Positions 2,909-33,233 of a DNA stretch of 64,000 bases are shown here, piece after piece (the stretch's first letter is position 1; every line of letters begins with the position of its first letter). Origin of the DNA: Escherichia coli (lineage in GTDB: Bacteria > Pseudomonadota > Gammaproteobacteria > Enterobacterales > Enterobacteriaceae); NCBI RefSeq assembly GCF_044324875.1, contig NZ_CP172185.1. The stretch is one strand, 5' to 3'. The notes beneath the pieces are model-generated. The model worked only from the letters and a program-made list of their open reading frames with translations. It made no database searches and had not been told where the DNA came from. Position numbers and translations under genes: made by a program.

Positions 2909-3709
2909 ATGAACATTACCCCGTTTCCGACGCTTTCGCCGGCAACCATAGATGCCATAAATGTTATCGGTCAGTGGCTGGCGCAGGATGATTTCTCCGG
3001 TGAGATGCCGTATCAGGCCGATTGCGTGATCCTTGCAGGCAATGCGGTTATGCCAACTATCGATGCGGCATGCAAGATTGCCCGCGATCAGCAAATTCCT
3101 CTACTGATTAGTGGTGGTATCGGTCACTCGACAACTTTTTTGTATAGTGCCATCGCACAGCATCCGCACTACAACACTATCCGCACCACTGGCAGAGCAG
3201 AAGCTACCATCCTGGCGGATATCGCTCATCAGTACTGGCACATTCCGCATGAAAAAATCTGGATTGAAGACCAGTCAACAAACTGCGGTGAAAACGCACG
3301 CTTTAGCATCTCGCTATTGAATCAGGCCGTAGAACGAGTTCATACGGCTATCGTTGTTCAGGACCCCACAATGCAGCGGCGCACGATGGCGACGTTCCGC
3401 CGTATGACTGGGGACAATCCCGATGCACCACGCTGGTTAAGTTATCCCGGATTCGTTCCTCAGCTAGGAAACAACGCAGACAGTGTAATCTTTGTTAATC
3501 CGTTGCAAGGATTATGGCCGGTTGAGCGTTATCTCTCACTACTCACTGGCGAGCTGCCACGTTTACGCGATGATAGCGATGGCTACGGTCCACGCGGGCG
3601 AGATTTTATCGTTCACGTTGATTTTCCGGCAGAAGTCATCCAGGCATGGCAAACGCTGAAACACGATGCGGTGCTCATCGAGGCGATGGAAAGTCGCTCG
3701 TTACGTTAA
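2909..3709 (+). CDS. ydcF: DUF218-family protein YdcF
   Basis: 266-aa ORF recognised as YdcF; RBS aaggagg upstream. Confidence 0.9.
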
Positions 3710-3905: not shown

Positions 3906-5345
3906 ATGTCAGTACCCGTTCAACATCCTATGTATATCGATGGACAGTTTGTTACCTGGCGTGGAGACGCATGGATTGATGTGGTAAACCCTGCTACAGA
4001 GGCGGTCATTTCCCGCATTCCCGATGGTCAGGCCGAGGATGCCCGTAAGGCAATCGATGCAGCAGAACGTGCACAACCAGAATGGGAAGCGTTGCCTGCC
4101 ATTGAACGCGCCAGTTGGTTGCGCAAAATCTCCGCCGGGATCCGAGAACGCGCCAGTGAAATCAGTGCGCTGATTGTTGAAGAAGGGGGCAAGATCCAGC
4201 AGCTGGCTGAAGTCGAAGTGGCTTTTACTGCGGACTATATCGATTACATGGCGGAGTGGGCACGGCGTTATGAAGGCGAGATTATTCAAAGCGATCGTCC
4301 AGGAGAAAATATTCTTCTGTTTAAACGTGCGCTTGGCGTGACTACCGGCATTCTGCCGTGGAACTTCCCGTTCTTCCTCATTGCCCGCAAAATGGCTCCC
4401 GCTCTTTTGACCGGTAATACCATCGTCATTAAACCCAGTGAATTTACGCCAAACAATGCGATTGCTTTTGCCAAAATTGTCGATGAAATAGGCCTTCCAC
4501 GCGGTGTGTTTAACCTTGTGCTAGGGCGTGGTGAAACCGTTGGGCAAGAACTGGCGGGTAACCCAAAGGTCGCAATGGTCAGTATGACAGGCAGCGTCTC
4601 TGCAGGTGAAAAGATCATGGCGACTGCAGCAAAAAATATCACAAAAGTGTGTCTGGAATTGGGTGGTAAAGCACCAGCTATCGTAATGGACGATGCCGAT
4701 CTTGAACTGGCAGTCAAAGCCATCGTTGATTCACGCGTCATTAATAGTGGGCAAGTGTGTAACTGTGCAGAACGTGTTTATGTACAGAAAGGCATTTATG
4801 ATCAGTTCGTCAATCGGCTGGGTGAAGCGATGCAGGCGGTGCAATTTGGTAACCCCGCTGAACGCAACGACATTGCGATGGGGCCGTTGATTAACGCCTC
4901 GGCGCTGGAAAGGGTCGAGCAAAAAGTGGCGCGCGCAGTAGAAGAGGGGGCGAGAGTGGCGTTGGGGGGCAAGGCAGTAGAGGGGAAAGGATATTATTAT
5001 CCGCCGACATTGCTGCTGGATGTTCGCCAGGAAATGTCGATTATGCACGAGGAAACCTTTGGCCCGGTGCTGCCAGTGGTCGCATTTGACACGCTGGAAG
5101 AGGCTATCGCAATGGCTAATGACAGTGATTACGGCCTGACCTCATCAATCTATACCCAAAATTTGAACGTCGCGATGAAAGCCATTAAAGGGCTGAAGTT
5201 TGGTGAAACTTACATTAACCGTGAAAACTTCGAAGCTATGCAAGGCTTCCACGCCGGATGGCGTAAATCCGGTATTGGCGGCGCAGATGGTAAACATGGC
5301 TTGCATGAATACCTGCAGACCCAGGTGGTTTATTTACAGTCGTAA
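3906..5345 (+). CDS. aldA: lactaldehyde dehydrogenase
   Basis: 479-aa ORF recognised as AldA (aldehyde dehydrogenase family). Confidence 0.95.
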   Translation: MSVPVQHPMYIDGQFVTWRGDAWIDVVNPATEAVISRIPDGQAEDARKAIDAAERAQPEWEALPAIERASWLRKISAGIRERASEISALIVEEGGKIQQLAEVEVAFTADYIDYMAEWARRYEGEIIQSDRPGENILLFKRALGVTTGILPWNFPFFLIARKMAPALLTGNTIVIKPSEFTPNNAIAFAKIVDEIGLPRGVFNLVLGRGETVGQELAGNPKVAMVSMTGSVSAGEKIMATAAKNITKVCLELGGKAPAIVMDDADLELAVKAIVDSRVINSGQVCNCAERVYVQKGIYDQFVNRLGEAMQAVQFGNPAERNDIAMGPLINASALERVEQKVARAVEEGARVALGGKAVEGKGYYYPPTLLLDVRQEMSIMHEETFGPVLPVVAFDTLEEAIAMANDSDYGLTSSIYTQNLNVAMKAIKGLKFGETYINRENFEAMQGFHAGWRKSGIGGADGKHGLHEYLQTQVVYLQS

Positions 5346-5355
5346 TGAGTGAAAG

Positions 5356-5379
5356 AGGCGGAGGTTTTTCCCTCCGCCT
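5356..5379. terminator. bidirectional stem-loop terminator between convergent aldA and gapC
   Basis: perfect hairpin aggcggagg-tttttc-cctccgcct. Confidence 0.6.
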
Positions 5380-5386: not shown

Positions 5387-6388
5387 TCAGAGTTTAGCGA
5401 ATTTTTCGAGGGTGCGAATAAGCTGCGTGACGAAGCCATATTCGTTATCGTACCAGGCGACCGTTTTCACCAGTTGTAAATCGCCCACGGCGGTAATTTC
5501 CGTTTGCGTGGCATCAAACACCGACCCGAAATGGCTGCCAATGATATCAGAAGAGACTATTTCTTCATCGGTATAACCAAATGACTCGTTATTGTTTGTC
5601 GCCTTTTTAAGCGCGTTGTTCACCTCTTCGGCAGTCACTTTTTTTCCAAGAATAGACACCAGTTCAGTCACCGAACCTGTTTTCACGGGTACGCGTTGCG
5701 CATGACCTTTCAGTTTGCCGCTCAGTTCCGGGATCACCAGACCAATGGCTTTTGCCGCACCTGTAGTGTGGGGAATGATATTTTCTGCCGCTGCACGTGA
5801 AGCGCGTAGATCTTTACCTCGCGGACCATCCACCAGTGACTGAGTGCCGGTATAGGCATGAATGGTCGTCATCGTGCCGACTTCTATTCCGAAACTGTCG
5901 TGCAAGGCTTTGGCCATCGGTGCAAGACAGTTAGTGGTGCATGACGCCACGGAAACAATGGTGTCGTTGCCATCCAGTGTGTCGTCATTGACGTTATAAA
6001 CGATGGTTTTCATTTCACCGGCAGGGGCGGAAATCAACACTTTCTTCGCACCAGCATCAAGATGCGCCTGCGATTTCTCGGCGGAGGTATAAAAGCCAGT
6101 ACATTCGACAATGATTTCTGCGCCTTTCGCTTTCCATGGAATATTTTTAGCCTCTTTTTCGGCGTAAACCGCGATACTTTTTCCATCAACGATAAGTGAA
6201 TCTTCCGTAAAATCAACGCGCCAGGGGAACGGACCATAGTTTGAATCATGTTTCAGCAGATAGGCGAGAATTTTTGGGGAAGTGAGATCATTAATAGCAA
6301 CAATGTCTATGTTGCTTTTGACTTCAAGTAATCGACGCAACACCAGTCGACCGATACGACCAAAACCGTTAATACCAACTTTACTCAT
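5387..6388 (-). CDS. gapC: glyceraldehyde-3-phosphate dehydrogenase GapC (intact)
   Basis: uninterrupted 333-aa ORF with the GAPDH N-terminal NAD-binding motif [10 protein letters not shown] and active-site region SCTTNCLAP. Confidence 0.9.
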
Positions 6389-6576
6389 GGTCTTCTCCTG
6401 TCAGGAACGTTCGGATGAAAATTGATCCTTTCCAGGCTTAGACCAGGATGGCGGGATGGGCAATCTACATTCTTGCCGTGAAACGTAACGTACTGAAAAC
6501 GGGTGAACAATATTTAATGAAATTTTAAGAAAAGCTCGTTATGTTAACGGAAAATTGTTTTAAAGCAGGAAATGTT

Positions 6577-7107
6577 ATGGAAAATAAATACTCAAGGTTA
6601 CAAATCAGCATTCACTGGCTGGTCTTTTTGCTGGTTATCGCAGCGTATTGCGCAATGGAGTTTCGTGGTTTCTTCCCACGTAGCGATCGGCCGCTCATCA
6701 ACATGATTCATGTTTCCTGTGGCATCACAATTCTCGTGCTGATGGTGATTCGTCTTTTGTTAAGGCTGAAATACCCAACCCCGCCGATTATACCTAAGCC
6801 AAAACCGATGATGACGGGACTGGCGCATTTGGGACATTTGGTGATCTATCTCCTGTTTATTGCGCTGCCAGTGATTGGTTTGGTGATGATGTATAACCGG
6901 GGCAACCCGTGGTTTGCGTTTGGTATGACGATGCCTTATGCATCAGAGGCCAATTTCGAACGGGTTGATAGCTTAAAGTCGTGGCATGAAACGCTGGCAA
7001 ATCTGGGATACTTTGTCATCGGGTTGCACGCTGCGGCTGCACTGGCACACCACTATTTCTGGAAGGACAACACACTTCTACGCATGATGCCGCGTAAACG
7101 TTCCTGA
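6577..7107 (+). CDS. cybB: cytochrome b561
   Basis: 176-aa membrane protein from MENKYS; ORF-track start at 6541 is an upstream extension. Confidence 0.9.
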   Translation: MENKYSRLQISIHWLVFLLVIAAYCAMEFRGFFPRSDRPLINMIHVSCGITILVLMVIRLLLRLKYPTPPIIPKPKPMMTGLAHLGHLVIYLLFIALPVIGLVMMYNRGNPWFAFGMTMPYASEANFERVDSLKSWHETLANLGYFVIGLHAAAALAHHYFWKDNTLLRMMPRKRS

Positions 7108-7391
7108 AGGATATTTAAAGAAAACGCCTGTACTAAAACCGACCCGTGGTACAGGCGAAGAATACGGGTCTACATCGGAAGCGCCTATTATATTTATTTG
7201 TATGACAAATAAAACCATAATCCTGGTCCATACGTCCATCTGGCTTATCTTTAATCAATTCACCCGATCTTTGATCTCATCAACGGTATCAAAATAAACC
7301 AGCGTATAACGTTCAAATCGAACATAAGATTCGATAGGTGATGCTGCCAACTTACTGATTTAGTGTATGATGGTGTTTTTGAGGTGCTCCA

Positions 7392-7667
7392 GTGGCTTCT
7401 GTTTCTATCAGCTGTCCCTCCTGTTCAGCTACTGACGGGGTGGTGCGTAACGGCAAAAGCACCGCCGGACATCAGCGCTATCTCTGCTCTCACTGCCGTA
7501 AAACATGGCAACTGCAGTTCACTTACACCGCTTCTCAACCCGGTACGCACCAGAAAATCATTGATATGGCCATGAATGGCGTTGGATGCCGGGCAACTGC
7601 CCGCATTATGGGCGTTGGCCTCAACACGATTTTACGTCACTTAAAAAACTCAGGCCGCAGTCGGTAA
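7392..7667 (+). CDS. insA: IS1 InsA
   Basis: 91-aa ORF recognised as IS1 InsA. Confidence 0.9.
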
Positions 7668-8089
7668 CCTCGCGCATACAGCCGGGCAGTGACGTCATCG
7701 TCTGCGCGGAAATGGACGAACAGTGGGGCTATGTCGGGGCTAAATCGCGCCAGCGCTGGCTGTTTTACGCGTATGACAGGCTCCGGAAGACGGTTGTTGC
7801 GCACGTATTCGGTGAACGCACTATGGCGACGCTGGGGCGTCTTATGAGCCTGCTGTCACCCTTTGACGTGGTGATATGGATGACGGATGGCTGGCCACTG
7901 TATGAATCCCGCCTGAAGGGAAAGCTGCACGTAATCAGCAAGCGATATACGCAGCGAATTGAGCGGCATAACCTGAATCTGAGGCAGCACCTGGCACGGC
8001 TGGGACGGAAGTCGCTGTCGTTCTCAAAATCGGTGGAGCTGCATGACAAAGTCATCGGGCATTATCTGAACATAAAACACTATCAATAA
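7586..8089 (+). CDS. insB: IS1 InsB' (expressed as InsAB' by -1 frameshift)
   Basis: 167-aa ORF overlapping insA in the -1 frame, as in IS1. Confidence 0.9.
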
Positions 8090-8128
8090 GTTGGAGTCAT
8101 TACCGATTCGATAAACCATGGAGGTTAT

Positions 8129-8374: not shown

Positions 8375-8564
<190 letters not shown>

Positions 8565-8582
<18 letters not shown>

Positions 8583-8630
8583 TCGTTGGCCTCGGTTGAT
8601 AGAAATATCGGTCGGGGCCTTCGTCTTTCT
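8565..8630 (+). ncRNA. sokB: approximate position of SokB antisense RNA (placed by analogy with hok/sok loci)
   Basis: inferred from hok/sok architecture only; ends not determined from sequence. Confidence 0.25.
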
Positions 8631-8856
8631 GATTCCCGGTTAGCCTGAAAACAGAAAGTCTCAGGCACCCGTGAGCATCCTATGTGGTTTCCTTAGGGAC
8701 GAAAATAATCACCTGACGAAATTGCGTGCTGTTTTCCAGAATTTTTCGTCATTCGGTTTAGCCAGTTTAATCATTCGTTACTCTCTTCATTCCAATGGCA
8801 TTATTCTTCTCTGCCATAATTGTTGTAAAAATGTGACGCAAAGAGGTTTTTGGTCG

Positions 8857-13084: not shown

Positions 13085-13308
13085 ATTCTGACCATCCGCC
13101 TTTGCAAAAATTTGCCTGATTTTACAAACGAATCAGGCTCATCCCATCGACATAAAAAAATTGCCGATTAATGCATATTCTCTCAGTTCAACAATTGGAT
13201 TATTAATAAATATTGTCTAGAGTGAGCGGTCATAAATAAGCACTTTCTTGCCGCTGAAAACGACCAGCGCGGGACCATTCACAACACCAGAAGGACTCAC
13301 TTTCAGGT

Positions 13309-14964
13309 ATGGATCGTAGACGATTTATTAAAGGTTCAATGGCTATGGCCGCCGTGTGCGGTACCAGCGGCATTGCTTCTCTTTTTTCTCAGGCGGCATT
13401 CGCGGCAGATTCTGATATTGCCGACGGGCAAACCCAGCGTTTTGACTTCTCCATTCTACAGTCAATGGCGCACGACCTAGCGCAAACAGCGTGGCGTGGT
13501 GCGCCGCGTCCGTTACCTGACACTCTGGCGACAATGACGCCGCAGGCTTATAACAGTATTCAATACGACGCCGAAAAATCGCTCTGGCATAACGTTGAGA
13601 ACCGTCAACTGGACGCTCAGTTCTTCCATATGGGAATGGGTTTCCGTCGCCGCGTTCGTATGTTTTCTGTTGATCCCGCAACACATCTGGCGCGTGAAAT
13701 TCACTTTCGCCCGGAGTTGTTCAAATACAACGATGCGGGTGTTGATACCAAACAATTAGAAGGGCAAAGCGATCTCGGCTTTGCCGGTTTTCGCGTGTTT
13801 AAAGCCCCCGAACTGGCGCGTCGTGATGTAGTATCATTCCTCGGTGCGAGTTATTTCCGCGCCGTTGATGACACATATCAATATGGTTTGTCGGCTCGCG
13901 GCCTGGCGATCGACACTTACACCGACAGTAAAGAAGAGTTCCCCGACTTTACCGCCTTCTGGTTTGATACGGTAAAACCGGGGGCAACTACCTTTACCGT
14001 TTATGCGTTGCTCGATAGCGCCAGTATTACTGGTGCCTATAAGTTCACTATCCATTGTGAGAAAAGTCAGGTGATTATGGATGTGGAAAATCACCTGTAT
14101 GCGCGCAAAGACATTAAACAGCTGGGCATTGCGCCGATGACCAGCATGTTCAGCTGCGGCACTAATGAACGTCGGATGTGCGACACCATTCATCCGCAAA
14201 TCCATGACTCTGATCGTCTGTCCATGTGGCGGGGCAACGGCGAGTGGATTTGCCGTCCGCTGAATAATCCGCAAAAATTGCAGTTCAATGCTTACACCGA
14301 CAACAACCCGAAAGGGTTTGGTTTATTGCAACTGGATCGTGATTTCTCCCATTATCAGGACATTATGGGCTGGTATAACAAACGCCCAAGTCTGTGGGTG
14401 GAACCGCGTAACAAGTGGGGTAAGGGCACCATCGGCCTGATGGAAATCCCAACAACGGGCGAAACGCTGGATAACATTGTCTGCTTCTGGCAGCCAGAAA
14501 AAGCTGTAAAAGCGGGTGATGAGTTTGCATTCCAGTATCGTCTGTACTGGAGTGCGCAACCGCCTGTTCATTGCCCATTAGCGCGCGTTATGGCGACGCG
14601 TACCGGCATGGGCGGTTTCCCGGAAGGTTGGGCGCCAGGTGAACACTATCCCGAAAAGTGGGCGCGTCGTTTTGCCGTCGATTTCGTTGGTGGTGATCTG
14701 AAAGCTGCCGCACCAAAAGGCATTGAGCCGGTGATTACGCTTTCCAGTGGGGAAGCGAAGCAAATCGAAATTCTCTATATTGAACCCATTGAAGGTTATC
14801 GTATTCAGTTTGACTGGTATCCGACTTCGGACTCCACTGATCCGGTCGATATGCGGATGTATCTGCGTTGTCAGGGCGACGCTATCAGTGAAACATGGCT
14901 GTATCAGTATTTCCCACCAGCGCCGGATAAACGTCAGTATGTTGACGACCGCGTGATGAGTTAG
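13309..14964 (+). CDS. opgD: periplasmic glucan biosynthesis protein D (Tat-secreted)
   Basis: 551-aa ORF with twin-arginine signal [10 protein letters not shown]. Confidence 0.95.
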
Positions 14965-14976
14965 TCGTTTTTTCTT

Positions 14977-15000
14977 CGGCACCTTCTTCGGGAGGTGCCG
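14977..15000 (+). terminator. stem-loop after opgD
   Basis: inverted repeat cggcacc...ggtgccg. Confidence 0.4.
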
Positions 15001-15103
15001 TCTGGTTAAACACGATCCCGCTCGCATTTTTCCCTAAGTTAAATGAGTAATCTGATGGTGTGTATTTCAGATACACCTTGTCAGCCACTAACAGGGAGTG
15101 CGT

Positions 15104-15328
15104 ATGTTTCCAGAATACCGAGATTTAATATCCCGTCTGAAAAACGAAAATCCTCGCTTTATGTCCTTGTTCGATAAACACAATAAACTTGATCATGAAA
15201 TTGCCAGAAAGGAAGGTTCCGACGGTCGAGGGTACAATGCGGAAGTGGTCCGCATGAAAAAACAAAAGCTACAGTTAAAAGATGAGATGCTCAAAATCCT
15301 GCAGCAGGAGAGCGTCAAAGAGGTGTAA
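15104..15328 (+). CDS. ydcH: DUF465-family small protein YdcH
   Basis: 74-aa ORF from MFPEYRDL. Confidence 0.8.
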   Translation: MFPEYRDLISRLKNENPRFMSLFDKHNKLDHEIARKEGSDGRGYNAEVVRMKKQKLQLKDEMLKILQQESVKEV

Positions 15329-15337
15329 ACTTTCCTA

Positions 15338-15363
15338 AGCCGCCAGCCAGGCGGCTTTTTTAA
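15338..15363 (+). terminator. Rho-independent terminator after ydcH
   Basis: hairpin agccgccagccaggcggct followed by tttttt. Confidence 0.7.
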
Positions 15364-15390
15364 CAACTGCATGGAGTGACTGGAGATAAG

Positions 15391-15930
15391 ATGACTGAAA
15401 CGATAAAAGTAAGCGAATCACTTGAATTACATGCTGTTGCAGAAAATCACGTCACACCTCTTTATCAGTTAATCTGTAAAAATAAAACCTGGTTACAGCA
15501 GTCGCTAAACTGGCCGCAGTTTGTTCAAATTGAAGAGGACACACGAAAAACGGTGCAGGGCAATGTAATGTTGCATCAACGCGGCTATGCCAAAATGTTC
15601 ATGATTTTCAAAGAAGATGAACTTATCGGCGTTATCTCGTTTAATCGTATTGAACCACTGAATAAAACCGCTGAAATCGGCTACTGGCTGGACGAATCTC
15701 ATCAGGGGGAGGGGATCATTTCTCAGGCGCTGCAGGCATTGATTCATCATTATGCTCAGTCTGGTGAACTTAGACGCTTCGTGATCAAATGTCGGGTGGA
15801 CAATGCGCAAAGCAACCAGGTCGCTTTGCGCAATGGTTTTATCCTTGAAGGTTGCCTGAAACAGGCTGAGTTTCTGAATGATGCCTATGATGATGTGAAC
15901 TTATACGCGCGTATTATCGATTCACAATAA
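15391..15930 (+). CDS. rimL: ribosomal protein L7/L12 serine acetyltransferase
   Basis: 179-aa GNAT ORF from [10 protein letters not shown]. Confidence 0.9.
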
Positions 15931-16902
15931 CCCTGCCAGCGGCGTTCGCGTAATGCGCTCTTCGCCGTTAATGACTTTTGGACCACGGACATGAACCGTG
16001 TCGCCATCAAAGGCTTCAACGACGGCGTGGTCGGTTAACTCCACATGGTTTTCAATTATCACCGCACCTGTAATACGGCTCTCACCTTGTATTACAACGT
16101 GCTCGTCGAGCAGAATCGGTCCGCCACGTACCACGGCATTTCCGCCAATCAAGACATGATGTTTTAACACACAATTACCTTCCACAATGGCATATTCCGC
16201 TACCTGCGAACTGTAATGAATTGTCGGAATGGCATCTTCTTCTATGCCAGCTTTCACCTGCGCGTGACCGTAGACTTTAGCACAATCGCATAGCCAGACG
16301 TTGTTCTCTTCATTACCTTCAACGCTGGCAAAATCAAAAACTTCGGCGCGATGTTCAATAAAAGCATACCGGACGACGGCATCGCCATAAATTTGTGCCT
16401 GGTGAACAATACGCGAGGCGCTAACCCTTGCGCGATCATAAATTTGTAGCAGGAGTTGATGGTCGGAGGTTAAGCCTTGCGCGGCGACGATCATAGAATG
16501 TTGATCAATTAAGGCGTGACCAAATATTCTACATTGACCGCAAACTAATGCGTCACGAATGGTGACGCTGTCACTTATATGTGCACCCTGACTGATTTCA
16601 CTATTATCGATCCAGACGTTATCCGTTGCGTAAACCTCTCCCCAAAGGACGCTGGTGCCGGTGATACGCGTATTACCGGAAATCACCGTTCCGCCGAACG
16701 CAATAGCATTCTGATCGTAAATCCAGCAATTTCCTTCCTGCGCTAACACCGTTTCGCGATCGATCCAGCCGCCAGCGGTTCCTGCTATCACATCGTTAAA
16801 ATCGCTCATGGCGATAATTTGCCGTAATAACACACTTTTTTTAGTGCCATCATCCTGATAACTAAAGGCTCGCTGTTCTTCACTTAGACGATATTTGCGC
16901 AT
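15922..16902 (-). CDS. ydcK: hexapeptide-repeat protein YdcK
   Basis: 326-aa ORF with left-handed beta-helix hexapeptide repeats. Confidence 0.9.
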
Positions 16903-17025
16903 AGCGTTTTCCCACAGGTGACTTACTATAACCGTAGCAAATTCTGCGGCTCTGGCTATGCTCGAGAAAATTCCATAAAATGCATTTCAAATATACTTTA
17001 TAAATTAAACAAAATGAGTAAGAAG

Positions 17026-18018
17026 ATGCAGAGCGATAAAGTGCTCAATTTGCCGGCAGGCTACTTTGGTATTGTGTTGGGGACGATAGGGATGGGATTT
17101 GCCTGGCGCTATGCCAGCCAGGTTTGGCAGGTCAGCCACTGGTTAGGGGATGGGCTAGTGATTCTGGCGATGATCATCTGGGGATTATTGACTAGCGCAT
17201 TTATTACCCGACTCATACGCTTTCCGCATAGCGTGCTGGCGGAAGTGCGTCATCCAGTGATGAGCAGTTTTGTGAGTTTGTTTCCGGCAACGACGATGCT
17301 GGTGGCGATTGGTTTTGTTCCGTGGTTTCGCCCACTGGCGGTGTGCCTGTTCAGTTTTGGCGTCGTGGTGCAACTGGCTTATGCCGCCTGGCAAACTGCG
17401 GGATTATGGCGCGGATCTCATCCTGAAGAAGCTACCACGCCTGGACTGTATCTGCCGACAGTTGCCAACAACTTTATCAGCGCAATGGCCTGTGGTGCAT
17501 TGGGCTACACCGACGCTGGTCTGGTGTTTTTAGGCGCAGGCGTTTTCTCATGGTTAAGCCTGGAACCGGTGATCTTGCAGCGTCTGCGCAGTTCGGGAGA
17601 ATTACCCACGGCGCTGCGGACATCACTCGGCATTCAGCTCGCTCCTGCGCTGGTGGCCTGTAGTGCCTGGCTGAGCGTCAACGGCGGCGAGGGTGACACG
17701 CTGGCGAAAATGCTTTTCGGTTATGGGCTGCTGCAACTGCTGTTTATGCTACGTCTGATGCCATGGTATCTCTCCCAGCCATTTAATGCTTCATTCTGGA
17801 GTTTCTCGTTCGGCGTATCTGCACTGGCAACCACCGGTTTGCATCTGGGGAGTGGCAGCGATAATGGATTTTTCCATACGCTGGCGGTGCCGCTGTTTAT
17901 CTTTACCAATTTTATAATTGCAATACTGCTCATCCGTACTTTCGCGCTTCTGATGCAGGGGAAATTGTTAATCAGAACCGAGCGCGCCGTTTTAATGAAA
18001 GCTGAGGACAAAGAATGA
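17026..18018 (+). CDS. tehA: tellurite resistance / C4-dicarboxylate transporter family protein TehA
   Basis: 330-aa polytopic membrane ORF from MQSDKVLN. Confidence 0.9.
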
Positions 18019-18618
18019 TCATTCGTGACGAAAACTATTTTACTGATAAGTATGAATTAACCCGCACACACTCTGAAGTACTGGAAGCGGTGAAAGTGGT
18101 TAAACCCGGTAAAACGCTGGATCTGGGCTGTGGCAATGGTCGTAATAGTCTTTACCTGGCAGCCAATGGTTATGAAGTTGACGCATGGGATAAAAATGCC
18201 ATGAGTATCGCCAACGTCGAGCGTATTAAATCCATTGAAAATCTGGATAATTTACACACCCGGGTCGTTGATCTGAATAACCTTACGTTTGATGGGCAAT
18301 ACGATTTTATTCTTTCGACTGTGGTGCTGATGTTCCTTGAGGCTAAAACCATCCCAGGGCTGATTGCCAATATGCAACGTTGCACTAAACCTGGCGGTTA
18401 CAACCTGATTGTGGCGGCGATGGATACCGCTGATTATCCATGTACCGTCGTGTACCGTCGGCTTCCCGTTTGCCTTCAAAGAGGGAGAATTACGTCGATA
18501 TTACGAAGGCTGGGAGATGGTGAAATACAATGAAGACGTCGGCGAGCTGCACCGCACCGACGCCAACGGTAATCGTATTAAACTGCGTTTCGCCACGATG
18601 CTGGCACGTAAAAAATAA
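18015..18618 (+). pseudogene. tehB: tehB (SAM-dependent tellurite methyltransferase) disrupted by a frameshift
   Basis: ORFs 18015-18533 and 18409-18618 join into one continuous methyltransferase if one copy of the tandem 10-bp repeat at 18441-18460 is removed. Confidence 0.85.
18441..18460 (+). repeat. perfect 10-bp tandem duplication tgtaccgtcg x2 inside tehB
   Basis: read directly from the sequence. Confidence 0.9.
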
Positions 18619-18920
18619 CCTGGTAAGAACAAGGCGCGTGAAAATTCCCCACGCTGAGATGGTCTACTGTTCTTCTTTTCGGTAAGCATAATTTTTATCG
18701 AATGGATGTGAAATTAATCACAGTAGTCGAAGTTTTTTAGCAGCTTAACTTACTGAAATTTAACTACTGATGATTGACTTAGCCCCTTTTTCGGCATTGA
18801 CTATGTCGTCTGAAAAGGGGCTGAAAAATTTATTTTCACCAACACTTTTTTTGCCACAACACGAAGCGGCGCTTTTTGCTATAACTTAGAAAGTAATATA
18901 ATCATCTCAGGAAACTATTC

Positions 18921-19589
18921 ATGCGTACCACATCAATTGCGAAAGTTGCAGCTTTATGCGGCTTGTTGGCTCTGTCTGGTTGTGCCTCTAAAATCACCCA
19001 GCCAGATAAATATTCTGGTTTTTTAAACAATTACTCTGATTTAAAAGAAACAACCTCAGCAACAGGTAAACCTGTTTTACGTTGGGTAGACCCGAGTTTT
19101 GATCAAAGCAAATATGACAGCATCGTCTGGAACCCAGTCACTTATTATCCGGTACCGAAACCATCTACCCAGGTAGGGCAGAAAGTTCTGGATAAAATTT
19201 TGAGTTATACCAACACCGAAATGAAAGAAGCGATTGCGCAGCGTAAACCACTGGTTACCACCGCTGGGCCGCGTAGTCTGATTTTCCGTGGGGCCATTAC
19301 CGGTGTTGATACCAGCAAAGAAGGGCTGCAATTCTATGAAGTGGTTCCTGTCGCATTAGTGGTCGCGGGGACGCAAATGGCGACGGGCCACCGTACCATG
19401 GATACTCGCCTGTATTTTGAAGGTGAGCTGATTGATGCAGCTACTAATAAACCGGTTATCAAAGTCGTTCGTCAGGGCGAAGGTAAAGACCTGAATAACG
19501 AAAGTACGCCAATGGCTTTCGAAAATATTAAACAAGTTATTGATGACATGGCGACCGATGCCACCATGTTTGACGTTAACAAAAAGTAA
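18921..19589 (+). CDS. ydcL: lipoprotein YdcL
   Basis: 222-aa ORF with lipobox LSGC. Confidence 0.9.
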   Translation: MRTTSIAKVAALCGLLALSGCASKITQPDKYSGFLNNYSDLKETTSATGKPVLRWVDPSFDQSKYDSIVWNPVTYYPVPKPSTQVGQKVLDKILSYTNTEMKEAIAQRKPLVTTAGPRSLIFRGAITGVDTSKEGLQFYEVVPVALVVAGTQMATGHRTMDTRLYFEGELIDAATNKPVIKVVRQGEGKDLNNESTPMAFENIKQVIDDMATDATMFDVNKK

Positions 19590-19622
19590 TTCCAGCCGCG
19601 CCATCGTAAGATGCGCTTTTTA

Positions 19623-20795
19623 TTATCGGTTTCTGTGAGCGATTAAATTCAACACCACGTAACAAACGCCTCCGGCAATTAATCCCCAGAACGCAGAACC
19701 AATCCCGACCAGCGTCAATCCACTTGCCGTTACCAGAAATGCCACCACCGCCGCGTCGCGCTCACGCTCATTATGCAGCGCCTGATACAAACTGCCGCCA
19801 ATGGTACTCAACAGCGCCAGACCTGCCAGCATCTGGATCCAACTTACGGGCAGGGCAGCCATCATCCCGGTAATGGCACTACCAAAAAGACCTGCGAGCA
19901 AATAAAAAATGCCTGCAACGGCAGCTGCCAGCCAACGTTGATCTTTATCCGGATGCGCTTCCGGGCTTTGACAAATAGCCGCGGTGAGTGCCGCAATACC
20001 GACGGAATAAACGCCGAAAGGGGAAAAAACAAGCGCCAGCAATCCAGTAAACACAATCAACGGCGAAACAGGAGCCGAATACCCGGCTGCTTTCATTGCT
20101 GCGATACCTGGAGCGTTTTGCGATGCCATCGTCACCAGAAAAAGGGGGAGTGCAACGCTCAGACTGTGAGCAAACGAAAAATCAGGGGTAATATAAGTGG
20201 GGAGAACGGGTTTAAAGACAACATCATTTGTGACAACGTCACCTTGCGCCATAACGATCACGATCCCAATAATCATCGCGGCAATTACCGCATAGCGCGG
20301 CGCAACGGCCCTGGTTGCCAGCCATACCAGCAACATACTGCCACACAACGTAAATTGACCATCCAGACTGGCAAACGCCTGTAAACCAAAGCGTAATAAA
20401 ATCCCGGCAAGCATTGCTGCCGCAAGCGAGTGCGGAATAATGCGCATCAGACGAGCAAAGAGTCCCGTTATGCCGCAGAGGACTATTAACGCGTTGGTGA
20501 CAATAAAAACGCCGATGGCTTCGTTAAGTGTTAGTCCCTGTAATCCGGTGACCAACAAAGCCGCGCCAGGCGTTGACCATGCGGTGAGAACAGGTACGCG
20601 ATACCATAATGTCAGAGTCAGCGTACTGACGCCCATTGCCAGCCCCAGCGCCGTCATCCAGCCAGAGATTTGTGCAGTGGTGGCTCCGGCGACAATCGCT
20701 GCTTGCCAGATTATTGCCGCTGAACTGGCGTAGCCAATTAATACCGCCAGAAACCCCGCCAGTAGCGTGGGTGGAGGAATAGAAAACAGACGCAT
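19623..20795 (-). CDS. ydcO: benzoate-transporter-family membrane protein YdcO
   Basis: polytopic membrane ORF; start taken at MRLFSIPPP because the longer ORF would overlap divergent ydcN. Confidence 0.85.
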   Translation of the reverse strand: MRLFSIPPPTLLAGFLAVLIGYASSAAIIWQAAIVAGATTAQISGWMTALGLAMGVSTLTLTLWYRVPVLTAWSTPGAALLVTGLQGLTLNEAIGVFIVTNALIVLCGITGLFARLMRIIPHSLAAAMLAGILLRFGLQAFASLDGQFTLCGSMLLVWLATRAVAPRYAVIAAMIIGIVIVMAQGDVVTNDVVFKPVLPTYITPDFSFAHSLSVALPLFLVTMASQNAPGIAAMKAAGYSAPVSPLIVFTGLLALVFSPFGVYSVGIAALTAAICQSPEAHPDKDQRWLAAAVAGIFYLLAGLFGSAITGMMAALPVSWIQMLAGLALLSTIGGSLYQALHNERERDAAVVAFLVTASGLTLVGIGSAFWGLIAGGVCYVVLNLIAHRNR

Positions 20796-20886
20796 AGTCA
20801 CCTCGTGCGTTATAGCGTACAGGTACCGTAGCATTTGTCCGTTATAACGCACAAGTGATAAACTTCCGTTTTGCCGGAGGAGTCGC

Positions 20887-21423
20887 ATGGAAAATCTCGC
20901 TCGCTTTTTATCCACCACACTTAAACAACTACGCCAGCAGCGCGGCTGGAGTCTTTCGCGACTGGCCGAAGCGACAGGCGTTTCTAAAGCGATGTTAGGG
21001 CAGATTGAGCGTAATGAGTCCAGCCCGACGGTCGCGACATTATGGAAAATTGCCACCGGGTTGAATGTGCCATTTTCGACATTTATTTCTCCGCCGCAGT
21101 CCGCTACGCCTTCAGTTTATGATCCGCAACAGCAGGCGATGGTGATCACTTCGCTGTTTCCTTATGATCCACAACTCTGCTTTGAACACTTCTCGATTCA
21201 GATGGCACCTGGTGCAATAAGTGAATCGACGCCCCATGAGAAGGGAGTAATCGAACATGTTGTCGTCATTGATGGGCAACTTGATCTGTGCGTTGATGGT
21301 GAATGGCAGAGCCTTAATTGTGGAGAAGGCGCTCGATTTGCTGCAGACGTTACGCATGTCTATCGTAATGGTGGGGAGCAAATCGTACATTTTCATTCCC
21401 TCATCCATTACCCACGCAGTTAA
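20887..21423 (+). CDS. ydcN: XRE-family HTH / cupin transcriptional regulator YdcN
   Basis: 178-aa ORF with N-terminal HTH and C-terminal cupin. Confidence 0.9.
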   Translation: MENLARFLSTTLKQLRQQRGWSLSRLAEATGVSKAMLGQIERNESSPTVATLWKIATGLNVPFSTFISPPQSATPSVYDPQQQAMVITSLFPYDPQLCFEHFSIQMAPGAISESTPHEKGVIEHVVVIDGQLDLCVDGEWQSLNCGEGARFAADVTHVYRNGGEQIVHFHSLIHYPRS

Positions 21424-21495
21424 GCGGGAAAACTATTTCGCAACGTCGCGCTTGTGGCTAAAATAGCCGCCATTTTTCAGCTACTGGATAAGAAT

Positions 21496-23457
21496 GTGAC
21501 CGTATCTTCTCATCGACTTGAACTGTTAAGCCCGGCACGCGATGCCGCCATTGCCCGCGAAGCTATTTTGCACGGTGCCGATGCTGTTTATATCGGCGGC
21601 CCTGGTTTTGGTGCCCGTCATAATGCCAGTAATAGCCTGAAAGATATTGCCGAACTGGTGCCGTTTGCCCATCGTTATGGTGCAAAAATTTTCGTCACGC
21701 TTAACACCATTTTGCATGATGATGAGCTGGAACCTGCGCAACGGCTGATTACCGACCTCTACCAGACCGGCGTCGATGCGCTGATTGTTCAGGATATGGG
21801 GATTCTGGAACTTGATATTCCGCCGATTGAACTGCACGCCAGTACGCAGTGCGATATTCGCACAGTAGAAAAAGCGAAGTTCCTCTCTGATGTTGGCTTT
21901 ACGCAGATTGTGCTGGCGCGAGAGCTGAATCTTGAGCAGATCCGCGCGATTCACCAGGCCACGGACGCGACCATTGAATTCTTTATTCATGGTGCATTGT
22001 GCGTGGCCTATTCTGGTCAGTGCTACATTTCTCATGCGCAAACAGGGCGTAGCGCCAACCGTGGCGATTGCTCGCAGGCATGCCGTTTGCCATACACATT
22101 GAAAGACGATCAGGGGCGGGTGGTTTCTTATGAAAAACATCTGCTGTCGATGAAAGATAACGATCAGACTGCCAACCTTGGCGCGCTGATTGATGCTGGC
22201 GTGCGCTCCTTCAAGATTGAAGGGCGTTACAAAGATATGAGCTACGTGAAGAATATCACCGCGCATTATCGCCAAATGCTGGATGCCATTATTGAAGAAC
22301 GTGGCGATCTGGCGCGTGCTTCATCAGGTCGTACTGAACATTTCTTTGTTCCATCGACGGAAAAGACTTTCCACCGTGGTAGCACAGATTATTTTGTGAA
22401 TGCCCGTAAAGGGGATATCGGCGCGTTCGATTCGCCGAAATTTATCGGCCTGCCGGTGGGTGAAGTATTGAAAGTGGCGAAAGATCATCTTGATGTTGCC
22501 GTCACCGAGCCACTGGCAAATGGCGATGGCCTGAACGTGATGATTAAACGTGAAGTAGTCGGTTTTCGTGCCAATACGGTAGAAAAAACCGGAGAAAATC
22601 AGTACCGCGTCTGGCCAAATGAGATGCCTGCGGATTTGCATAAAATTCGTCCGCATCATCCGCTTAATCGTAATCTGGACCATAACTGGCAGCAGGCGTT
22701 GACCAAAACATCCAGCGAACGTCGCGTAGCGGTAGACATTGAACTGGGCGGATGGCAGGAACAACTGATTCTGACCCTGACCAGTGAAGAGGGCGTCAGC
22801 GTCACGCATACGCTGGATGGACAATTCGACGAAGCTAATAACGCCGAAAAAGCGCTTAATAACCTGAAAGATGGTCTGGCTAAGCTGGGGCAAACCATCT
22901 ATTACGCCCGCGATGTGCAAATTAACCTGCCTGGTGCGCTGTTTGTACCGAACAGTCTGTTAAATCAGTTCCGCCGTGAGGCCGCCGAAATGCTGGATGC
23001 TGCGCGTCTTGCCAGTTATCAGCGCGGCAGTCGTAAACCGGTTGCTGATCCTGCGCCGGTTTATCCGCAAACGCATCTGAGTTTCCTCGCGAACGTTTAC
23101 AACCAGAAAGCGCGTGAATTTTATCATCGCTATGGTGTGCAGCTGATTGACGCGGCGTATGAGGCACATGAAGAGAAGGGCGAAGTCCCGGTGATGATCA
23201 CCAAGCATTGTCTGCGCTTTGCCTTTAATCTGTGCCCGAAACAGGCGAAAGGCAATATCAAAAGCTGGAAGGCGACGCCAATGCAACTGGTTAATGGCGA
23301 TGAAGTGTTAACGCTGAAATTTGATTGCCGTCCGTGTGAGATGCACGTCATCGGCAAAATTAAAAATCACATTCTGAAAATGCCGTTACCGGGAAGCGTA
23401 GTGGCATCCGTAAGTCCGGATGATCTGCTGAAAACATTGCCGAAGCGAAAAGGGTAA
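21496..23457 (+). CDS. rlhA: U32-family peptidase-like protein YdcP/RlhA (23S rRNA hydroxylation)
   Basis: peptidase U32 family ORF; GTG start at 21496 assumed (653 aa); ORF track begins at 21454. Confidence 0.85.
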   Translation: MTVSSHRLELLSPARDAAIAREAILHGADAVYIGGPGFGARHNASNSLKDIAELVPFAHRYGAKIFVTLNTILHDDELEPAQRLITDLYQTGVDALIVQDMGILELDIPPIELHASTQCDIRTVEKAKFLSDVGFTQIVLARELNLEQIRAIHQATDATIEFFIHGALCVAYSGQCYISHAQTGRSANRGDCSQACRLPYTLKDDQGRVVSYEKHLLSMKDNDQTANLGALIDAGVRSFKIEGRYKDMSYVKNITAHYRQMLDAIIEERGDLARASSGRTEHFFVPSTEKTFHRGSTDYFVNARKGDIGAFDSPKFIGLPVGEVLKVAKDHLDVAVTEPLANGDGLNVMIKREVVGFRANTVEKTGENQYRVWPNEMPADLHKIRPHHPLNRNLDHNWQQALTKTSSERRVAVDIELGGWQEQLILTLTSEEGVSVTHTLDGQFDEANNAEKALNNLKDGLAKLGQTIYYARDVQINLPGALFVPNSLLNQFRREAAEMLDAARLASYQRGSRKPVADPAPVYPQTHLSFLANVYNQKAREFYHRYGVQLIDAAYEAHEEKGEVPVMITKHCLRFAFNLCPKQAKGNIKSWKATPMQLVNGDEVLTLKFDCRPCEMHVIGKIKNHILKMPLPGSVVASVSPDDLLKTLPKRKG

Positions 23458-23507
23458 AACGCCAGTTTTCTGGTTACTCACAACTTATCAAATCTGCATG
23501 ATATTGT

Positions 23508-23543
23508 TGGCCGGGTAAGGCGTTACGCCGCATCCGGCAATAA
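23508..23543. repeat. REP (repetitive extragenic palindrome) element
   Basis: gccgggtaaggcgttacgccgcatccggca matches the REP consensus. Confidence 0.6.
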
Positions 23544-23548
23544 ATGAC

Positions 23549-23779
23549 TCAACGTTGTCCCGCTTCTGGTTTGCGCGATTTTTGCCAGTAAAAATGCTCG
23601 CGCAAACCTTCCGCCGACTCTTCCGCCACAGCACGCAATTCATCGCTGTCCGCTTCATGACGCAGTTGATGATCCACATTCTTTACCCACATAAATTCAT
23701 GTCCTTTGTGCCCTGCCATGAGTTGTCCTGAGAACAGCGCACACGTTAATAAGACAACCGATAACGCCTTCGTAAACAT
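23549..23779 (-). CDS. yncJ: DUF2554 secreted protein YncJ
   Basis: 76-aa ORF with signal peptide. Confidence 0.85.
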   Translation of the reverse strand: MFTKALSVVLLTCALFSGQLMAGHKGHEFMWVKNVDHQLRHEADSDELRAVAEESAEGLREHFYWQKSRKPEAGQR

Positions 23780-24000
23780 CCCGCCACCTTTTTCTCACCT
23801 TTTGCCGCTATGATGCCGATCGTTTCTTGAGGTTATTATTCAGTTTTGCAAATTAGCGCAAAGAAATTCTGGAATCTTCCTTCCTGATTTTGCATTGCAT
23901 TCTGCCGTTGCGGCGATTAAGTGCTATTTTCGAGAAAATTACACACGGAGGTAAACAATAATGTTTACTTTGTTGATATACTCAGCGGCAGGGAGGCGAT

Positions 24001-24177
24001 GTGAAACAAAGCGAGTTCAGACGTTGGCTCGAATCTCAGGGCGTCAATGTAGCAAATGGCAGCAACCATTTAAAACTCAGGTTTCACGGGAGGCGCAGTG
24101 TCATGCCGCGTCACCCCAGCGAAGAGATTAAAGAACCATTACGTAAAGCCATTCTGAAACAACTCGGTTTGAGTTAA
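24001..24177 (+). CDS. hicA: type II toxin HicA (mRNA interferase), GTG start
   Basis: hand-translated 58-aa ORF MKQSEFRRWLESQGV... directly upstream of hicB. Confidence 0.85.
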   Translation: MKQSEFRRWLESQGVNVANGSNHLKLRFHGRRSVMPRHPSEEIKEPLRKAILKQLGLS

Positions 24178-24222
24178 TCGCCAATTAAAAAGGTTAATGA
24201 CATGCGAGAGACAGTCGAAATT

Positions 24223-24639
<417 letters not shown>

Positions 24640-24717
24640 TAACAGTTAATGAAAAGTTGTCATTTTTAACAACTGATATAGACTGCCGAATCACCTGCAC
24701 ATAATAACGATTCGATA

Positions 24718-26124
24718 ATGAAAAAATACCAGCAGCTTGCAGAACAATTACGCGAGCAGATTGCGTCGGGTATCTGGCAACCCGGAGATCGTTTGCCTTC
24801 GTTGCGTGACCAGGTGGCGCTTTCTGGCATGAGCTTTATGACTGTCAGCCATGCCTATCAGTTGCTCGAAAGTCAGGGATATATTATCGCGCGACCGCAG
24901 TCGGGTTATTACGTTGCGCCACAGGCAATAAAAATGCCGAAAGCGCCAGTCATTCCAGTCACACGAGATGAAGCAGTCGATATCAACACCTATATTTTTG
25001 ATATGTTGCAGGCCAGTCGTGATCCGTCGGTAGTTCCGTTTGCCTCGGCCTTTCCCGACCCGCGACTTTTCCCCCTCCAACAACTAAACCGCTCGCTGGC
25101 GCAGGTAAGCAAAACCGCCACGGCGATGAGCGTGATTGAAAACTTACCGCCAGGAAACGCAGAACTGCGTCAGGCTATTGCTCGTCGCTATGCCTTACAG
25201 GGCATCACTATTTCTCCTGATGAAATTGTCATTACCGCCGGGGCGTTAGAGGCATTAAACCTCAGTTTACAAGCGGTAACGGAACCAGGCGATTGGGTGA
25301 TAGTAGAGAATCCTTGTTTCTACGGCGCGTTGCAGGCGCTGGAGCGGTTACGGCTGAAGGCGTTATCGGTGGCGACGGATGTTAAAGAAGGGATCGATCT
25401 TCAGGCGCTGGAACTGGCGTTGCAGGAGTATCCGGTGAAAGCGTGCTGGCTGATGACTAATAGCCAGAATCCACTCGGATTTACCTTAACGCCGCAAAAA
25501 AAAGCACAACTGGTGGCGTTGCTCAATCAGTACAACGTAACGCTGATTGAAGATGACGTGTACAGCGAACTTTATTTTGGACGGGAAAAACCGCTGCCTG
25601 CGAAAGCGTGGGATCGCCACGATGGTGTTTTGCATTGCTCTTCGTTTTCGAAATGTCTGGTGCCTGGTTTTCGTATTGGTTGGGTCGCCGCCGGAAAACA
25701 TGCACGTAAAATTCAACGATTGCAGTTGATGAGTACGCTTTCCACCAGCTCACCGATGCAGCTTGCGCTGGTGGATTACCTTTCCACGCGCCGATACGAC
25801 GCCCATCTTCGTCGCCTGCGTCGCCAGCTTGCGGAACGTAAACAACGTGCCTGGCAGGCACTGCTGCGTTATCTGCCTGCGGAAGTGAAAATTCATCATA
25901 ATGACAGCGGTTATTTTCTCTGGCTGGAACTCCCCGCGCCGTTAGATGCGGGCGAATTAAGCCTGGCGGCACTGACGCATCATATCAGTATTGCGCCGGG
26001 TAAAATGTTTTCTACCGGTGAAAACTGGTCACGTTTTTTTCGTTTTAATACCGCGTGGCAGTGGGGAGAACGTGAAGAACAGGCGGTAAAACAATTAGGC
26101 AAATTTATTCAAGAACGGCTGTAA
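24718..26124 (+). CDS. ydcR: MocR/GntR-family regulator with aminotransferase-like domain, YdcR
   Basis: 468-aa ORF; N-terminal GntR HTH plus PLP-aminotransferase fold. Confidence 0.9.
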   Translation: MKKYQQLAEQLREQIASGIWQPGDRLPSLRDQVALSGMSFMTVSHAYQLLESQGYIIARPQSGYYVAPQAIKMPKAPVIPVTRDEAVDINTYIFDMLQASRDPSVVPFASAFPDPRLFPLQQLNRSLAQVSKTATAMSVIENLPPGNAELRQAIARRYALQGITISPDEIVITAGALEALNLSLQAVTEPGDWVIVENPCFYGALQALERLRLKALSVATDVKEGIDLQALELALQEYPVKACWLMTNSQNPLGFTLTPQKKAQLVALLNQYNVTLIEDDVYSELYFGREKPLPAKAWDRHDGVLHCSSFSKCLVPGFRIGWVAAGKHARKIQRLQLMSTLSTSSPMQLALVDYLSTRRYDAHLRRLRRQLAERKQRAWQALLRYLPAEVKIHHNDSGYFLWLELPAPLDAGELSLAALTHHISIAPGKMFSTGENWSRFFRFNTAWQWGEREEQAVKQLGKFIQERL

Positions 26125-26368
26125 TAGCGTTTAATTAAATTCCTCTCAGGTTGGGTAATATGAATTTCGAATAGCAGTCATATTTCCTAACTCCTTGTCT
26201 ATACTCCAGAAGATAACCTTACAGACGGCATAATGCGCGGTAGCTCACAACCTGATTAAATTTTCTCAGGGGCGAAGGTGTGCCTGCAAGCCGCCGTCTA
26301 TGGTTAAACAAGGAGATATTTTTACGGCACGGCGGCTGAACAATTAATTACGACAGGAGTAAGACCTT

Positions 26369-27514
26369 ATGAGCAAGACATTTGCCCGCAGCAGCCTGTG
26401 TGCGCTCACCATGACAATAATCACCGCTCATGCCGCCGAACCGCCTACCAATTTAGATAAACCGGAAGGGCGACTGGATATTATCGCCTGGCCGGGATAC
26501 ATCGAACGCGGACAAACTGATAAACAATACGACTGGGTAACGCAATTCGAAAAAGAGACAGGCTGCGCGGTGAATGTGAAAACCGCCGCGACTTCCGATG
26601 AAATGGTCAGTCTGATGACCAAAGGGGGTTACGATCTGGTTACAGCATCCGGCGATGCCTCGCTGCGCCTGATTATGGGCAAACGCGTGCAGCCGATTAA
26701 TACCGCATTGATTCCCAACTGGAAAACGCTCGATCCGCGCGTGGTTAAAGGCGACTGGTTTAACGTTAGTGGCAAAGTTTATGGCACACCCTACCAATGG
26801 GGGCCGAACCTGTTGATGTACAACACTAAAACCTTCCCGACGCCGCCGGATAGCTGGCAAGTGGTCTTTGTTGAGCAGAATCTGCCGGACGGCAAGAGCA
26901 ATAAAGGCCGCGTACAGGCCTATGATGGCCCTATCTACATTGCGGACGCTGCGTTGTTCGTTAAAGCCACTCAGCCGCAGTTGGGCATCAGCGATCCGTA
27001 TCAACTCACCGAAGAACAGTACCAGGCGGTGCTGAAAGTGCTGCGCGATCAACACAGTTTGATCCATCGCTACTGGCATGACACGACCGTGCAAATGAGC
27101 GATTTCAAAAACGAGGGTGTGGTTGCTTCCAGTGCCTGGCCCTATCAGGCCAACGCCCTGAAAGCCGAAGGCCAGCCTGTCGCTACCGTTTTCCCGAAAG
27201 AGGGCGTTACCGGTTGGGCTGACACCACCATGCTACATAGCGAAGCGAAACATCCGGTTTGCGCCTACAAATGGATGAACTGGTCATTAACGCCAAAAGT
27301 GCAGGGCGATGTGGCGGCCTGGTTTGGCTCGTTACCAGTAGTGCCGGAAGGGTGTAAAGCCAGTCCGTTATTAGGCGAGAAAGGTTGTGAAACAAACGGT
27401 TTTAACTATTTCGATAAAATCGCCTTCTGGAAAACGCCTATAGCAGAAGGGGGCAAGTTTGTTCCCTACAGTCGCTGGACGCAGGATTACATTGCCATTA
27501 TGGGCGGTCGCTAA
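26369..27514 (+). CDS. ydcS: periplasmic substrate-binding protein of an ABC transporter, YdcS
   Basis: 381-aa ORF with signal peptide, polyamine-binding-protein-like. Confidence 0.9.
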   Translation: MSKTFARSSLCALTMTIITAHAAEPPTNLDKPEGRLDIIAWPGYIERGQTDKQYDWVTQFEKETGCAVNVKTAATSDEMVSLMTKGGYDLVTASGDASLRLIMGKRVQPINTALIPNWKTLDPRVVKGDWFNVSGKVYGTPYQWGPNLLMYNTKTFPTPPDSWQVVFVEQNLPDGKSNKGRVQAYDGPIYIADAALFVKATQPQLGISDPYQLTEEQYQAVLKVLRDQHSLIHRYWHDTTVQMSDFKNEGVVASSAWPYQANALKAEGQPVATVFPKEGVTGWADTTMLHSEAKHPVCAYKWMNWSLTPKVQGDVAAWFGSLPVVPEGCKASPLLGEKGCETNGFNYFDKIAFWKTPIAEGGKFVPYSRWTQDYIAIMGGR

Positions 27515-27531
27515 CTTCGCTGGGGTGTTTT

Positions 27532-30271: not shown

Positions 30272-30292
30272 CCACTGATACAGGAATATGCT

Positions 30293-31717: not shown

Positions 31718-31926
31718 GTTAGATGTTAGTGGCTGTTATAGGACGGCCACTATCGTTTTAGGTTCTGAGTTTAATGGCGGTTAAGTATTAGAATGATTAC
31801 ATTAATAACTAGCGTAAAAATTAGGCTAAATGTTTGATGGCGATTTTTCATCCTGTCACAGTTGATTAGCATAAGGCTTTAGAGTATCGTTATTAAACTA
31901 ATAATTTATAAGTAGAAGTATTAACA

Positions 31927-33137: not shown

Positions 33138-33233
33138 TCAAATAAACCAGCCAAATCTCATAGAGATAAGAGTAAACAAACCAACAGCAGCAAAGACATT
33201 TATCAGTACTACAGTTCTACTGGAAACATTCAT
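33138..33233 (-). CDS. yncL: small membrane protein YncL (31 aa)
   Basis: hand translation of the minus strand: MNVSSRTVVLINVFAAVGLFTLISMRFGWFI. Confidence 0.8.
   Translation of the reverse strand: MNVSSRTVVLINVFAAVGLFTLISMRFGWFI

Follow-up and report, generated by a model that had tools for sequence, protein, structure and literature searches.

An uninterrupted gapC gene in Escherichia coli and the second GAPDH that it most likely encodes

Escherichia coli carries two related loci for glyceraldehyde-3-phosphate dehydrogenase (GAPDH), gapA and gapC, and the K-12 copy of gapC has been known as a pseudogene since the 1990s. A sequence-only reading of the DNA studied here, a 64,000-nucleotide stretch of E. 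coli contig NZ_CP172185.1 (assembly GCF_044324875.1) that we call the window, singled out gapC as a gene without interruption. The locus thereby raises two questions: whether an intact gapC is the exception or the rule in the species, and whether the intact gene specifies a working enzyme in addition to GapA.

The gapC locus in the window

We found that the proposed uninterrupted reading frame stands: in the ORF list, gapC occupies 5387..6388 of the minus strand as a single frame of 333 codons from ATG to TGA, with zero internal stops. That this is not a chance ORF is confirmed by matches to the GAPDH profile TIGR01534 and to the Pfam domains Gp_dh_N and Gp_dh_C. Overlapping ORFs on the other frames and strands of gapC were considered as an alternative feature and found to be without support. 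The features of the locus are as follows.

3906..5345, plus strand: aldA, convergent neighbour of gapC (ORF list, comparison with strain 042)
5356..5379, no strand assigned: hairpin between the aldA and gapC stops, with a GC-rich 9-bp stem (RNA fold)
5387..6388, minus strand: gapC coding sequence, type I NAD-dependent GAPDH (ORF, TIGR01534, Pfam, 100% match to the 'gap' coding sequence of 042)
5639..5645, minus strand: run of seven A (A7), gene nucleotides 744-750, Gly248-Lys249-Lys250; A6, a -1 frameshift, in K-12 (alignment, probes)
5858..5860, minus strand: CAT codon of catalytic His177 (translation; H177A tested in a near-identical enzyme)
5939..5941, minus strand: TGC codon of catalytic Cys150, within the SCTTNC motif (translation; C150 essential in a 329/333-identical enzyme)
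6272..6274, minus strand: codon 39, AAA (Lys) in the window and a TAA stop in K-12 (alignment, probes)
6350..6367, minus strand: Rossmann-fold dinucleotide-binding motif G8-F-G10-R11-I12-G13 (translation)
6389..6576, no strand assigned: divergent intergenic region between gapC and cybB, the presumed promoter region of gapC
6395..6399, minus strand: Shine-Dalgarno sequence AGGAG, 6 nt 5' of the gapC ATG (read from the sequence)
6577..7107, plus strand: cybB (cytochrome b561), divergent neighbour of gapC (ORF list, comparison with 042)

The order aldA-gapC-cybB is identical in the window and in all 18 genomes that we inspected, 042, K-12 and BLR(DE3) included. On the minus strand, the sequence CAGGAGAAGACC, which contains the AGGAG Shine-Dalgarno, immediately precedes the ATG. 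Between an upstream stop and this ATG (6388) there is no other start codon, so no longer form of GapC is possible in the window. Metagenome gene calls P0001, P0003-P0005 and P0007, at 383 amino acids and 98-99% identity to GapC, are about 50 residues longer, which probably reflects an upstream start call. At the other end of the gene, the 41-bp gap between the convergent aldA and gapC genes holds a hairpin of -20.7 kcal/mol (z = -3.98 versus shuffled sequences) that is a probable terminator for both genes. Its stem is strong but its flanking U-tracts are weak, and it was absent from the output of a strict terminator scan; for these reasons, we infer termination of gapC at this site. An Rfam scan of 3000-9000 gave no RNA match within gapC, and its only matches close by were the RydC small RNA just downstream of cybB (7118..7181, minus strand, 92.5 bits) and sok, the antisense RNA at the hokB locus (8519..8670, minus strand, 109.7 bits).

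The disruption of gapC in K-12, which the sequence-only reading had named, was borne out by RefSeq, where the BW25113 gene is flagged 'frameshifted; internal stop', and by a pairwise alignment that displays both lesions. Along its 1,002 nt this alignment, which the same reading had put forward as a check, has 44 differences, two of them disabling, both in K-12, while the frame in the window is open. The first lesion converts the Lys39 codon AAA to TAA, and the second shortens the A7 run at gene nucleotides 744-750 (codons 248-250) to A6, shifting the frame. The K-12 pseudogene, b4493 (formerly gapC_1/gapC_2, b1417/b1416), otherwise shares its locus and neighbours with the window gene and is 95.6% identical to it in DNA. 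K-12 gapC also has the substitution R18G, common to 7/7 sampled alleles that carry the stop; the window gene lacks R18G along with both lesions.

The closest relative of the window gene is that of E. coli 042, annotated as 'gap' (WP_000048642.1, EC042_RS08170) and not as a pseudogene, with 100% DNA identity across the whole gene. Around gapC, about 13 kb of the window are 99.96-100% identical to the 042 genome (NC_017626.1). In the part of the window at 13166..64000, identity to that genome stays at 99.85% as far as ~23.5 kb and then drops to 98.4%, 97.3% and 94.8%, a pattern suggestive of a recombination boundary or of a related strain. We ruled out that the window is strain 042 itself, given an extra IS1, three single-nucleotide differences, the lower identity past ~23.5 kb and a different set of insertion sequences. 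The 768-bp IS1 lies at 7337..8104 between rydC and ydcA, some 15 bp ahead of where ydcA is annotated to start, and is flanked by a 9-bp target duplication (GATTCGATA, at 7328..7336 and 8105..8113); RefSeq 042 lacks this element, and a probe spanning the IS1 junction had no match in 5,426 complete E. coli genomes. One of the single-base differences, at 2984, falls in ydcF (2909..3709), which is intact in the window with 266 codons and a CAG codon for Gln26, whereas RefSeq 042 has an amber TAG at codon 26 and flags ydcF as a pseudogene. The other two are at 1997 and 7202. The IS1397 copy of 042 is absent from the window at ~23526. Conversely, a 6.7-kb block of the window at 46483..53163, encoding IS21-family IstA/IstB-like proteins and IS66-family transposase proteins, is absent from this site in 042; it adjoins a type VI secretion vgrG/tssI gene at 43745..46150.

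Intact and broken gapC across E. coli

We counted gapC states in a reference set of 5,426 complete E. coli genomes. The gene was matched in 5,417 of them, with one matching place in the median genome and 90-100% identity; five gapC and five aldA matches in the genome search fall on records labelled as plasmids. For each lesion we used probes with every 28-base seed word spanning the lesion, which hence match only in carriers. The K-12 TAA at codon 39 was detected in 1,155/5,426 genomes and the A6 frameshift allele in 1,050/5,426, while AAA at codon 39 was detected in at least 3,878/5,426; neither codon-39 probe matched in 384 genomes. The probe census covers the two K-12 lesions, and the figure of 3,878 stands for an intact codon 39 and not for a fully intact gene; inactivating lesions that lie outside the census include an extra deletion in one allele (L017) and a 20% partial match (H40).

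In 17 further genomes, drawn from all along the identity ranking, gapC was intact in 10, carried just the stop in two, and carried both stop and frameshift in five. Among the intact ones are those of Nissle 1917, an ST95 strain, an O111:H8 strain and an O55:H7 strain. Intact gapC is the ordinary, majority state in E. coli, and the broken state is confined to about one fifth of sequenced E. coli, a set that is itself inflated by laboratory derivatives of K-12. As judged from the alleles, the K-12 pseudogene appears to be the derived product of stepwise decay, with the stop first and the frameshift second, because the stop occurs alone in two of the sampled genomes and together with the frameshift in five, and because the stop is the more frequent lesion overall (1,155 versus 1,050). 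One of the five stop-plus-frameshift alleles (L017) bears a further deletion and another pseudogene allele (L018) has further nonsynonymous changes, extra damage of the kind expected after inactivation. In O111:H8 strain 1074-2 (L009, 1344..1602), gapC is intact and the adjoining aldA is annotated as frameshifted; decay at the locus is therefore not limited to gapC.

Set against these counts, the suggestion that intact gapC is a useful strain marker was overstated: no fewer than 3,878 genomes of the reference set have codon 39 intact, and the K-12 stop is found in 1,155. Since the majority of genomes are intact, intactness says only that a strain is not of the K-12-like lineage, and the state of gapC is a coarse lineage marker that separates K-12-like strains from the rest. 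The counts also indicate that GapC is not essential, since about 21% of genomes retain GapA but no longer have GapC.

The window allele is rare, with only one record at 99% identity or higher, that of E. coli 042 at 100%. We ruled out foreign import of the allele: aldA alongside it shows a like pattern, with three records at 99% or higher, and the rarity of the allele is that of a lineage rare among complete genomes. At the protein level, Arg57 in the window GapC is likewise not private to this lineage, as 177/5,426 genomes carry the R57 codon (by probe, counted regardless of whether gapC is intact), and Ile29, Lys262 and Asn265 recur in other sampled intact alleles. In the protein database, GapC orthologues are 96% identical in E. 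albertii, ~90% in Citrobacter and 87-89% in other genera, including Trabulsiella, Klebsiella oxytoca/grimontii, Enterobacter and Kluyvera; an orthologue is also present in Pseudescherichia (87-96% range overall). With orthologues across the Enterobacteriaceae, gapC is therefore an old resident and not a recent import into this strain.

Selection on gapC and its expression

Across 11 intact alleles, we calculated a mean dS of 0.104 and a mean dN of 0.0038, for a dN/dS of 0.037. Of the segregating sites in these alleles, 63 are synonymous and 8 nonsynonymous, whereas under neutrality about 76% should be nonsynonymous (binomial p = 9e-31). The GapC protein is under strong purifying selection in intact alleles.

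These data bear directly on the less improbable of two alternative readings, in which gapC of the window strain is intact yet physiologically silent (cryptic), having not yet acquired a lesion. A scan of the gapC upstream region for a sigma-70 consensus promoter gave no match, and the gene is dispensable, with 1,155 genomes carrying a stop in it. Mobile elements also enter the locus: in the BL21 lineage an IS1A has landed between gapC and cybB, and the IS1 of the window lies ~950 bp away from gapC. We nevertheless consider silence unlikely. The low dN/dS and the 63:8 ratio of synonymous to nonsynonymous sites across divergent intact alleles require selection at the level of the protein, and both the Shine-Dalgarno sequence and the upstream region are intact in the window. 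Moreover, even the pseudogene region of K-12 binds sigma-S RNA polymerase and yields a regulated transcript: a ChIP-seq peak of the sigma-S polymerase has gapC_1 and cybB as its nearest genes (PMC4447067), and gapC_1 is found in a published table of K-12 genes regulated by RpoS or cAMP-CRP. We propose that gapC is probably expressed in the window strain, from a weak or sigma-S-dependent promoter like that reported for K-12.

GapC as a probable active GAPDH

Window GapC matches the NCBIfam profile for type I GAPDH (TIGR01534) with E = 4.7e-134 and 446.8 bits, where the curated equivalog cut-off is 367.2, and the match runs over GapC residues 3-325 and the complete profile (positions 1-330 of 330). 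In Pfam, Gp_dh_N covers residues 3-102 (122.4 bits) and Gp_dh_C residues 155-313 (196.1 bits), the two-domain GAPDH architecture of an N-terminal NAD-binding domain and a C-terminal catalytic domain. Models for more specific members of the family scored below their cut-offs: GapA (NF011954, 301.8 bits versus 662), Epd (TIGR01532, 277.8 versus 530.55; NF010058, 280.5 versus 539) and the ArsJ-associated GAPDH (NF033735, 307.5 versus 450). The neighbours of gapC are aldA and cybB, and arsJ is not adjacent to it.

The translated protein has R11, I12, D34, S120, C150, H177, T180, T182, T209, G210, R232 and N315. Within this set, Cys150 sits in the motif VASCTTNCL and His177 in TTIHAYTG, and the anion-site residues Thr180, Thr182, Thr209, Gly210 and Arg232 are all kept. 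The NAD fold is marked by G8-F-G10-R-I-G13, a GxGxxG motif, together with Asp34; in GAPDH, an acidic residue at this position favours NAD over NADP.

The GAPDHs of E. coli are of two types, GapA being 'eukaryote-like' and GapC 'bacterial-like'. GapA (WP_000153502.1) has in common with GapC its fold family, the Cys-His pair with the SCTTNC motif, the NAD-binding motif and the chemistry, but K-12 GapA is only 47% identical to window GapC and is encoded elsewhere, at msrB-gapA-yeaD, in contrast to the position of gapC between aldA and cybB. In comparisons with PDB entries, those that rank next after 7C5F score ~409-483 bits against window GapC, versus 279 bits for GapA; these higher scores are consistent with the assignment of GapC as bacterial-like and GapA as eukaryote-like.

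The best PDB matches to window GapC are 7C5F, 7C5H, 7C5P and 7C7K plus a mutant series, 329/333 identical over the full length. The native 7C5F sequence is exactly the GapC of BLR(DE3), a strain of the BL21 lineage (WP_000048667.1), and the same protein occurs in three other sampled genomes, including O111:H8. BL21-lineage GapC (PDB 7C5F-7C5R, 7C7K) shares with the window protein its aldA-gapC-cybB locus, its length and its catalytic and NAD-binding residues. From window to BL21, the two proteins differ by I29V, R57S, K262Q and N265T, none of which is among the listed catalytic or NAD-contact residues; the genes differ at 42 nucleotides, mostly synonymous. In BLR(DE3) (NZ_CP020368.1; L022, 8352..9049), an IS1A lies within the gapC-cybB spacer and leaves the gapC coding sequence intact. 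The window lacks this IS1A, which, by its position in the presumed promoter region, may alter native gapC expression in BL21.

The enzyme in these structures, named EcGAPDH1, is an active NAD-dependent phosphorylating GAPDH, with a KM of 0.73 mM for glyceraldehyde 3-phosphate (G3P) and a kcat of ~2.2e5 per min (PMC8615399). It was assayed at its reported optimum of 50 C and pH 10; activity was lost in C150A and dropped ~8,000-fold in H177A and ~38,000-fold in C150S (PMC8615399). Structures trapped both the thioacyl intermediate and complexes with 1,3-bisphosphoglycerate, and the NAD contacts named include Arg11, Ile12 and Asp34 (PMC8615399). The same paper gives Arg78 as an NAD contact; residue 78 is Lys in window GapC and likewise in the 7C5F chain, a mismatch of numbering. 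Because the paper never mentions gapA or gapC (PMC8615399), it is easily missed that the EcGAPDH1 structures (the 7C5F series) are those of GapC and not of the housekeeping GapA. In vivo, according to two reviews, BL21 gapC substituted for gapA in engineered methylotrophic E. coli, for which it was chosen as the less active enzyme, with ~40% of GapA activity (PMC9214030, PMC8879981). Both experiments that had been proposed as checks on the window gene have thus effectively been carried out on the BL21 allele four residues away, the enzyme assay on EcGAPDH1 (PMC8615399) and gapA complementation by replacement of gapA in the engineered strain (PMC9214030, PMC8879981).

On this evidence, the earlier suggestion of a potentially functional second GAPDH is plausible: the catalytic and NAD-binding residues are present, the protein is under purifying selection, and a 329/333-identical enzyme is active. 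As read from its sequence, window gapC is the intact ancestral form of the gene, and we hold it very likely that it encodes an active NAD+-dependent phosphorylating GAPDH. Its mechanism is most likely that of a textbook phosphorylating GAPDH, as documented structurally for the BL21 orthologue. Cys150 would attack G3P to form a thiohemiacetal, with His177 acting as base; hydride would then pass to NAD+ held in the N-terminal Rossmann domain (G8xG10xxG13, Asp34); and phosphate would enter last, cleaving the thioacyl intermediate to give 1,3-bisphosphoglycerate.

It is very improbable that GapC has instead diverged to another main activity with GAPDH activity incidental (as an Epd-like erythrose-4-phosphate dehydrogenase, an arsenate-linked enzyme like the ArsJ-associated GAPDH or a moonlighting protein with a non-glycolytic role). 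In favour of such divergence, glycolysis in E. coli is already served by GapA, to which GapC is only 47% identical, and GapC reportedly has the lower activity of the two. Against it, the Epd and ArsJ-GAPDH models fall under their cut-offs where the cut-off of the generic type I model is exceeded, no arsJ is adjacent, cells in which BL21 gapC replaced gapA were able to grow, and G3P, NAD and phosphate are substrates of the near-identical enzyme, whose thioacyl and bisphosphoglycerate structures have been solved. Returning to GapC as an active GAPDH, we infer that its role in the window strain is auxiliary to GapA. An intact gapC is in itself already known, having been annotated in RefSeq as a non-pseudo type I GAPDH, characterised structurally and enzymatically, and used in strain engineering.

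The data support purifying selection on gapC and a lineage-restricted decay of the gene, and speak to these and not to the condition in which GapC would matter. Work by Espinosa-Urgel and Kolter in 1998, as relayed by a review, reportedly gave gapC a role in aquatic environments. The assay optimum of EcGAPDH1 is at odds with the role in water at low temperature that has been ascribed to the gene. We tentatively suggest, at somewhat less than even odds in our own judgement, that GapC is more than a redundant copy and that selection maintains it, across most E. coli and numerous Enterobacteriaceae, for a condition-specific role, for example in sigma-S stationary phase or in low-temperature survival outside the host. 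If so, the loss of the gene in two steps by K-12-like strains would signal a shift of niche, and the window allele, identical to that of 042 and belonging to the R57 minority, would serve that role as a working gene. Metabolic models and annotations carried over from K-12 will wrongly lack a second GAPDH, both for the strain studied here and for the majority of E. coli outside K-12.
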